Assembly (NCBI RefSeq): GCF_003334255.1
Contig: NZ_QOWU01000126.1
Length of the DNA: 3,221 bases
Direction: 5' to 3' (one strand)
From: Escherichia coli
Lineage (GTDB): Bacteria; Pseudomonadota; Gammaproteobacteria; Enterobacterales; Enterobacteriaceae
Below are positions 2,064-3,221 of the stretch, piece by piece (within the stretch, counting starts at the first letter, position 1; every line of letters begins with the position of its first letter). A program made the translations under genes and the position numbers. The notes beneath the pieces were generated by a model. It saw only the letters and a program-made list of their open reading frames with translations, did no database searches and was not told where the DNA came from.

Positions 2064-2969
2064 ATGAGCATGTCTCATATCAATTACAACCACTTGTATT
2101 ACTTCTGGCATGTCTATAAAGAAGGTTCCGTGGTTGGCGCAGCGGAGGCGCTTTATTTAACTCCACAAACCATTACCGGACAGATTCGAGCGCTGGAAGA
2201 GCGCCTGCAAGGCAAATTATTTAAACGCAAGGGACGTGGTCTCGAACCCAGCGAGCTGGGAGAACTGGTCTATCGCTATGCCGATAAAATGTTCACCTTA
2301 AGCCAGGAAATGCTGGATATTGTGAACTATCGCAAAGAATCCAATTTATTGTTTGACGTTGGCGTGGCTGATGCACTTTCCAAACGCCTGGTCAGTAGCG
2401 TACTTAACGCCGCAGTGGTAGAAGGCGAGCCCATTCATCTTCGCTGCTTCGAATCCACCCACGAAATGCTGCTGGAGCAATTAAGTCAGCATAAACTGGA
2501 TATGATCATTTCTGACTGTCCGATAGACTCTACGCAGCAGGAAGGCCTGTTCTCCGTGAGAATTGGCGAATGTGGCGTGAGTTTCTGGTGTACAAATCCA
2601 CCACCAGAAAAACCGTTCCCGGCTTGTCTGGAAGAACGGCGACTTTTGATTCCTGGGCGACGTTCAATGTTAGGGCGCAAATTGCTTAACTGGTTTAACT
2701 CCCAGGGATTAAACGTAGAAATCCTCGGCGAGTTTGATGATGCCGCTTTGATGAAAGCTTTTGGTGCGATGCACAATGCAATCTTCGTTGCCCCAACGCT
2801 TTATGCATATGACTTTTATGCCGATAAAACTGTCGTAGAAATTGGTCGCGTCGAGAATGTGATGGAAGAGTACCATGCTATTTTTGCTGAGCGGATGATT
2901 CAGCACCCGGCGGTACAGCGAATCTGCAATACGGATTATTCTGCGCTTTTTAGTCCAGCGGTGCGTTAA
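2064..2969 (+). CDS. nhaR: LysR-type transcriptional activator NhaR (301 aa), Na+-responsive regulator of nhaA
   Basis: From ATG 2064 the frame translates to [53 protein letters not shown]..., which I recognise as E. coli NhaR. It has an N-terminal helix-turn-helix typical of LysR-type regulators and a C-terminal co-inducer domain. Stop TAA at 2967..2969. The ORF track's TTG start at 2046 adds 6 residues and overlaps the upstream hairpin, so I reject it. Confidence 0.96.
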
Positions 2970-2976
2970 TCGGCAG

Positions 2977-3001
2977 CTCCCCCAAAGTTAAGGTGGGGGA
3001 G
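2977..3001. other. GC-rich hairpin immediately downstream of the nhaR stop (no U-tract)
   Basis: CTCCCCCA at 2977..2984 pairs with TGGGGGAG at 2994..3001 (8 bp stem, 9 nt loop). No T-run follows on either strand, so it is not a canonical intrinsic terminator; it could be an RNA stability element or a rho-dependent termination region. Confidence 0.3.
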
Positions 3002-3144
3002 ATAGATTAGTTGTACATTACCACGATTTTGACTCGGCTCATTATTTGCCCGCTTGAGACATTGTTTCCATATGTACGCGGGCGAATAAATAGAGGAATC
3101 TGATTACTTCCTTCATGGGGATGCTGAAAAGAGTAGTAATTGCT

Positions 3145-3221
3145 GGTAATGACTCCAACTTATTGATAGTGTTTTATGTTCAGATAATGCCCGATGACTT
3201 TGTCATGCAGCTCCACCGATT
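3145..3221. mobile_element. IS1 terminus (terminal inverted repeat GGTAATGACTCCAACTTATTGAT and adjacent sequence), element truncated by the window end
   Basis: 3145..3167 matches my recollection of the IS1 terminal inverted repeat. The following sequence encodes the InsB C-terminus on the - strand (see next feature). The putative 9 bp target flank just outside the element is 3136..3144 (GTAATTGCT). Confidence 0.85.
3160..3221 (-). CDS. insB: IS1 transposase InsB, C-terminal fragment (partial, continues beyond the window)
   Basis: Minus-strand translation of 3219..3163 gives ...SVELHDKVIGHYLNIKHYQ followed by stop TAA (revcomp of 3160..3162), which matches the InsB C-terminus as I recall it. 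The ORF track did not list it because it is truncated at the window edge. Confidence 0.85.
   Translation of the reverse strand, partial: SVELHDKVIGHYLNIKHYQ

Follow-up and report, generated by a model that had tools for sequence, protein, structure and literature searches.

Features of the nhaR-IS1 interval

The window, by which we mean the whole analysed stretch of 3,221 nucleotides, was identified as the E. coli K-12-type region hokC/sokC - nhaA - nhaR - IS1A, its positions being converted to K-12 coordinates with an offset of 16651. The nhaR coding sequence, counted from the RefSeq start, occupies 2070-2969 on the plus strand (K-12 18721-19620) and closes with a TAA stop codon at 2967-2969. 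Beyond it lies a 175-bp segment (2970-3144), which a preliminary description made from the sequence had correctly taken to end at an IS1 junction: the insertion sequence starts at 3145 with GGTAATGACTCC, and 3145-3221 covers the right-hand inverted repeat of IS1A with the 3' end of insB on the minus strand, the complete element of 768 bp running past the end of the window. The segment is made up of a 37-bp spacer of island-specific DNA (2970-3006), lying between the stop codon of nhaR on the plus strand and the convergent stop codon of a fimbrial gene remnant on the minus strand, and of the remnant itself (3007-3144). The segment had been called AT-rich; at 44.0% GC, against 47.4% for nhaR, this holds mildly for the whole and for the remnant part (40.6%), but not for the spacer, which is 56.8% GC.

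Rfam 15 covariance models gave no match in 2970-3144 at E <= 1, and promoter and terminator scans of the segment returned chance-level results. The sole Rfam match in the window was to sok (RF01794, 118 bits) at 250-402 on the minus strand. Published sokC 3' ends, at 17007 (window position 356), belong to the plus strand, and the Rfam sok model appears to track the hokC/mokC leader strand. A canonical intrinsic terminator was observed between nhaA and nhaR at 2019-2045 (GGGGAGCC-ataaac-GGCTCCC-TTTT). The published 3' end at K-12 18696 coincides with window position 2045, and thus part of nhaA transcription halts ahead of nhaR.

A fimbrial gene remnant next to nhaR

The minus strand of 3007-3144 is an open frame of 45 codons followed by a TAA stop codon (3009-3007), and this frame takes up 138 of the 175 bp in which the preliminary description had found no ORF. 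The same interval and strand carry a pseudogene in RefSeq, under the name "fimbrial family protein, incomplete, missing N-terminus". When the frame was translated (SNYYSFQHPHEGSNQIPLFIRPRTYGNNVSSGQIMSRVKIVVMYN, then the stop), all 45 residues agreed with the C-terminal end of a 319-aa gene that other E. coli carry intact, and the possibility that the intact E. coli gene has a C-terminus not matching 3007-3144 was excluded. The remnant is without a start codon because IS1 cut the gene. The segment had also been described as a non-coding 3' flank, a view that its author would have given up on finding a conserved small ORF there in other genomes, and a conserved ORF was indeed found in them.

The 319-aa gene is always positioned after chaperone and usher genes, including in its homologs of 45-48% identity, in which the chaperone is of the PapD type. 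The name "fimbrial family protein" has its source in the RefSeq annotation only, and the protein gave no Pfam match at E <= 10, no NCBIfam match and no PDB sequence match. A glycine about 14 residues from the end together with a penultimate tyrosine is the mark of chaperone-usher pilin subunits, and the C-terminus of the 319-aa protein (...SSGQIMSRVKIVVMYN) has G at -14 and Y at -2, both invariant in the family alignment. The AlphaFold2 model of the protein was poor (mean pLDDT 53), and the top PDB matches obtained from this poor model with Foldseek, CsuE (E 9e-5) and FimH (E 1e-4), had TM-scores of only ~0.22. That both are tip adhesins is no more than suggestive of a two-domain adhesin fold in the 319-aa protein. 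The remnant is the 3' end of the adhesin-like gene that closes the chaperone-usher fimbrial operon of O-island 1 (OI-1).

Two further observations were made on this gene. The stop codon of insB stands in frame with the remnant (window 3007-3219, minus strand), with five codons from the IS1 inverted repeat in between, and this shared frame is probably a coincidence. In the O157-type strain 112 (locus L002, 7108-8068) the 319-aa gene is frameshifted into an N-terminal ORF of 108 aa, the start of which is signal-peptide-like, and a C-terminal ORF of 227 aa; gene order would make these z0021 and z0020, respectively. The former is fmrA, reportedly a repressor of flagellar motility, so that fmrA may represent the N-terminal part of a fimbrial adhesin gene that has been split in two.

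O-island 1 and the IS1 junction

In strains without the IS1 junction the adhesin-like gene is succeeded on the minus strand by usher, PapD-type chaperone and YehD-like major subunit, with espX1 and rpsT coming next. OI-1 of E. coli O157:H7 EDL933 has been described as a putative fimbrial cluster, z0020-z0025, with espX1 (PMC10877973, PMC9387321), and literature searches combining nhaR with rpsT and fimbrial, or nhaR with espX1, returned no papers. The window shares its locus and its DNA with OI-1: positions 2970-3144 and the O157-type strain 112 are 100% identical, and it is the gene next to nhaR, z0020 by gene order, whose 3' end the remnant represents. K-12 differs in that no more than 175 bp survives beside nhaR and ~200 bp beside rpsT, with IS1 in place of the other 6.5 kb. 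The island measures 6881 bp and has a GC content of 37.2%, compared with 49.7% for nhaA-nhaR. In most E. coli its site is between the convergent core genes nhaR and rpsT, and the island flank occurs in 4208 out of 5426 complete E. coli genomes, the K-12-type IS1 junction being found in 582. When K-12-type and B2-type E. coli were compared, homology was already lost within the last ~6 codons of nhaR. We read OI-1, that is, the chaperone-usher operon together with espX1, as a horizontally acquired island and the segment as its left-hand stub, composed of the 37-bp spacer with hairpin 1 and the last 45 codons and stop of the adhesin-like gene.

The IS1 element in K-12 replaces 6506 bp of the island (L002 7246-13751). 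The 9-mers on its two sides, GTAATTGCT and TACCTCAAT, differ and the flanks are mutually unrelated; comparison of these 9-mers showed no target-site duplication of 8-9 bp, the size usual for IS1 (PMC12428005). The absence of a duplication, together with flanks that lie 6.5 kb apart in the island, indicates an insertion with an adjacent deletion rather than a simple insertion. These features (a complete 768-bp IS1, flanks 6.5 kb apart in related genomes and no target duplication) are those of an IS1-mediated adjacent deletion, although recombination between two IS1 copies would give an identical scar. As direct comparison of the sequences shows, an IS1 insertion and adjacent 6.5-kb deletion in the K-12 lineage removed the rest of the island. 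E. coli PEC1009 (L084 3057-3824) carries an independent IS1 in the opposite orientation, located inside the 3' arm of hairpin 1, and has lost the whole of OI-1; OI-1 has thus been removed by IS1 at least twice.

The nhaR-rpsT terminator and the end of nhaR transcription

A scan for NhaR in 100,044 species genomes yielded 80 loci. In ~60 of them, from Enterobacteriaceae species of many genera, the stop codons of nhaR and rpsT are 57-200 bp apart, and these ~60 species have a single conserved bidirectional terminator between the two genes, CATAAAAAAACCCGC-loop-GCGGGTTTTTT, in which A- and T-tracts flank a CCCGC/GCGGG stem. On this comparative evidence the ancestral terminator of nhaR is taken to be the bidirectional AAAAAAACCCGC-loop-GCGGGTTTTTT hairpin that it had in common with rpsT. 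K-12 keeps the rpsT-side terminator at 20764, outside the window and 1144 bp from the nhaR stop codon. The idea that a native terminator had been separated from nhaR by IS1 was therefore right as to the separation, but wrong as to what caused it: it was the OI-1 fimbrial/espX1 island that moved the terminator away, IS1 having afterwards deleted 6.5 kb of this island.

Neither hairpin in the segment takes the place of this terminator. Each has the G+C-rich stem-loop of an intrinsic terminator (8 bp in hairpin 1, a 12-bp core in hairpin 2). As had been noted, neither is followed by a T-run: no terminator-like site was found on either strand, and the only runs of four T, at ~3027-3030 (plus strand) and ~3127-3130 (minus strand), do not follow a stem. 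Neither hairpin is thus an intrinsic terminator.

The published maps of RNA ends were then consulted for the interval. In the Term-seq data of Adams et al. (2021, PMC7815308), in which the nhaA terminator (18696, plus) and the rpsT terminator (20763, minus) are listed, tiling 12-mers of 2935-3136 found no 3' end on either strand under three conditions, while positive controls were found; the TRS LB RNAtag-seq list (PMC10687069) has no 3' end between 18697 and 19915. Expression of nhaR is low, the neighbouring nhaA terminator having 933 reads, one of the lowest plus-strand counts in the Term-seq rows examined, so that a minor 3' end at hairpin 1 might have escaped detection. The suggestion that nhaR termination is Rho-dependent or occurs inside IS1 was borne out, as two published MG1655 datasets place a plus-strand end inside IS1, one of them Rho-sensitive. 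The Rho-sensitive region is on the plus strand, antisense to insB-1, with a best coordinate of 20044, a Rho score of 7.73 and p 1.25e-10; counts were 66 upstream and 9 downstream without bicyclomycin, and 148 and 156 with it (PMC7815308). The Rho score is computed over 800-nt windows and is imprecise; the best coordinate is inside IS1, past the end of the window. The other dataset has a plus-strand terminus at 19910-19919 (19915), antisense to insAB1, with a fold of -7.8 kcal/mol and a longest U-tract of 2 (PMC10687069). Since IS1 is multicopy, reads and 3' ends at both 19915 and 20044 could come in part from other copies.

Plus-strand GC skew in sliding windows of 80 nt ran from zero to +0.27 over the 175-bp flank and from -0.10 to -0.26 inside IS1. 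The plus strand is therefore C-rich and G-poor only from IS1 on, which fits Rho loading in IS1. With the nhaR terminator displaced by the island, plus-strand transcription would leave nhaR and enter IS1 untranslated, antisense to insB, where it is halted by Rho. The Rho stop itself rests on the published bicyclomycin and 3'-end data, and we infer that the transcription halted there is read-through from nhaR.

The two hairpins

The 9-bp stem noted earlier at 3045-3053 with 3078-3086 (hairpin 2) is present and grows to a 12-bp core, 3042-3053/3078-3089, with one G-U pair and a 24-nt loop. Imperfect 23-nt arms, 3031-3053/3078-3100, extend it to 3031-3100 and are 74% complementary. The whole structure lies inside the coding remnant, its arms encoding SGQIM and FIRPR. 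In the homologs of 45-48% identity the residues IRPR and SSG.I are conserved at this place, while the corresponding DNA takes up shapes unrelated to hairpin 2, with folding energies of only -8.8 and -6.0 kcal/mol where K-12 has -17.0 kcal/mol. As the residues were kept and the fold was not, hairpin 2 was rejected as a functional structure; its lack of conservation in the homologs argues that it would have no function of its own. Hairpin 2 is best read as a coincidence of codons, Ser-Gly against Arg-Pro-Arg, in coding sequence that is now dead.

Hairpin 1, CTCCCCCA-aagttaagg-TGGGGGAG at 2977-3001, is a palindromic stem present on both strands without a T-run on either. The 8-bp GC stem reported there was found with perfect 8-nt arms (2977-2984/2994-3001), a 9-nt loop and 6 G-C plus 2 A-T pairs, and its folding energy is -13.7 kcal/mol on the plus and -13.6 kcal/mol on the minus strand. 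It begins 7 nt past the nhaR stop codon on the plus strand and 5 nt past the fimbrial gene stop codon on the minus strand. When the segment was shuffled with its dinucleotides kept, 3 of 1000 shuffles contained a perfect stem of 8 bp or longer with 6 or more G-C pairs, and 41 of 1000 a perfect stem of that length with any composition. A dispersed REP-like repeat was rejected as its identity, a 205-nt query containing hairpin 1 matching one place in the median genome and never more than two. Like the rpsT terminator, it is palindromic and placed between convergent genes; unlike it, hairpin 1 has neither of the two tracts.

Several observations connect hairpin 1 with the fimbrial operon. The two diverged homologous operons that were recovered (L086 and L087) both have a C5/G5 hairpin shortly past the stop codon of the equivalent gene. 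In L086, CCCCCTC-acgtc-GAGGGGG is followed by CTTTTTTT, which contains a T7 tract, and forms a canonical intrinsic terminator, and L087 has the same stem without a T-run; hairpin 1 may resemble these by analogy and not by common descent. In E. coli itself the stem is intact as a rule. A recurrent G-to-A variant leaves the plus-strand stem with a C.A mismatch (-8.1 kcal/mol) and the minus-strand stem with a G.U pair (-11.1 kcal/mol), and the variants in L003 and L093 fold at -16.5 and -16.6 kcal/mol on the minus strand versus -13.7 and -14.6 kcal/mol on the plus strand. In the L007 lineage an extra C and an extra G make the stem 9 bp. This evidence for action on the minus strand, if hairpin 1 acts at all, is modest. 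Most likely, hairpin 1 is the 3' hairpin of the fimbrial operon on the minus strand, where it would serve the fimbrial transcript as a terminator or a barrier to exonucleases and would be a relic in K-12 now. Because the stem is palindromic, it would form in the nhaR 3' UTR as well, where for want of a U-tract it would not be expected to terminate transcription.

In E. albertii the fimbrial gene has been reduced to a few codons and the stem of hairpin 1 is still kept: 16 of 16 stem bases are unchanged, with 4 of 9 loop bases and ~25% of neighbouring bases differing. The chance of an unchanged stem was put, as a rough estimate, at ~0.01. Its survival could mean that hairpin 1 has a role apart from the operon.

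Alternative interpretations

Hairpin 1 might instead serve nhaR, with 3'-5' exonucleases trimming the Rho-terminated transcript back to the stem-loop, which would then define and protect the mature mRNA 3' end. A stable stem just beyond the stop codon, without a U-run and with Rho-dependent termination further downstream, matches the class published by Dar and Sorek (2018, PMC6061677), Rho-dependent termination does take place downstream of nhaR, and the stem is conserved in E. albertii despite the loss of the fimbrial gene. However, no steady-state 3' end maps to hairpin 1 in Term-seq under the three conditions or in the TRS LB RNAtag-seq list, the common E. coli variant weakens the plus-strand hairpin and not the minus-strand one, so that polymorphism favours the opposite strand, and the class has rut sites directly downstream whereas the DNA directly 3' of hairpin 1 is G-rich on the plus strand and not rut-like. 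The IS1 within the 3' arm in PEC1009 indicates that hairpin 1 is dispensable, and B2 E. coli and other genera are without it after nhaR. We consider a role in protecting the nhaR transcript unlikely. It is also rather improbable that hairpin 1 has been selected on both strands as a palindromic insulator between convergent genes, lacking a U-tract and acting, for example, by stalling converging polymerases or blocking exonucleases. Such an insulator would shield nhaR from transcription arising in the island or IS1, and the island from transcription arising in nhaR, and, if real, would account for the survival of the stem in E. albertii and in K-12 after loss of the operon.

The original view of the segment, as an ORF-free, AT-rich, non-coding nhaR flank with two free-standing regulatory hairpins, has in its favour that both hairpins exist and that the segment folds better than its shuffles (z-scores of -2.4 for the plus and -3.5 for the minus strand). 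With most of it a gene remnant, a GC content only mildly low, and hairpin 2 built of conserved codons and lost in homologs, this view is refuted for hairpin 2 and for the absence of an ORF, and is very unlikely as a whole. A small RNA or small protein is scarcely credible. Two candidate frames are present, a 30-aa plus-strand ORF at 3011-3103, with GGAG ~10 nt ahead of its TTG at 3011, and a 38-aa minus-strand ORF at 3042-3158, and there is a weak promoter-like site on the minus strand at 3070-3041. Against them stand the Rfam result given above, a promoter count equal to chance expectation, and the published maps, which place no RNA ends in the interval. The 30-aa frame is lost in L007 and E. 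albertii, and the 38-aa frame is the +1 frame of the fimbrial gene, seen only in frameshifted alleles; the idea was rejected because the frames are not conserved. Taken as a whole, the segment is best explained, and we think quite probably, as what remains of a fimbrial island mostly deleted by IS1 in K-12.

Each part of this reading, in which the segment is an island remnant, belongs to a familiar kind: the pseudogene stub of a known island, a deletion associated with IS1, a bidirectional terminator that has been displaced, and untranslated read-through stopped by Rho. RefSeq already lists the pseudogene, and the finding is an ordinary and already known one. The K-12 nhaR-insB1 interval should be read as an OI-1 pseudogene stub and not as a regulatory 3' UTR, which has little import past annotation hygiene. 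In most E. coli, nhaR has lost its ancestral intrinsic terminator to the island and would rely on Rho. Transcription from nhaR would run antisense into IS1A, and this may be relevant to the context effects reported for IS1A transposition (PMC12428005).

Insertions in the nhaR-rpsT gap

The locus offers a textbook case of a convergent-gene terminator as an island insertion hot spot. The nhaR-rpsT gap has received insertions in many lineages (L005, L006, L012, L015, L017, L022, L036, L038, L073-L076 and L085), and inserted DNA is found there in several Citrobacter, in Klebsiella spallanzanii and in Atlantibacter. In B2 E. coli (EC958) the gap holds a GH31 hydrolase and an MFS transporter, and the DNA after nhaR in E. 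whittamii is closely similar. In the lineages whose sequence was read, the inserted DNA brings its own hairpin beside the nhaR stop codon. Decayed edges of the island were seen in two cases: in L007, an Escherichia lineage, ~100 bp near-identical to K-12 are followed by a remnant 37% identical at the protein level (4900-5130), and in E. albertii (L008 4900-4970) the edge has shrunk to hairpin 1 with no more than the final few codons of the gene.
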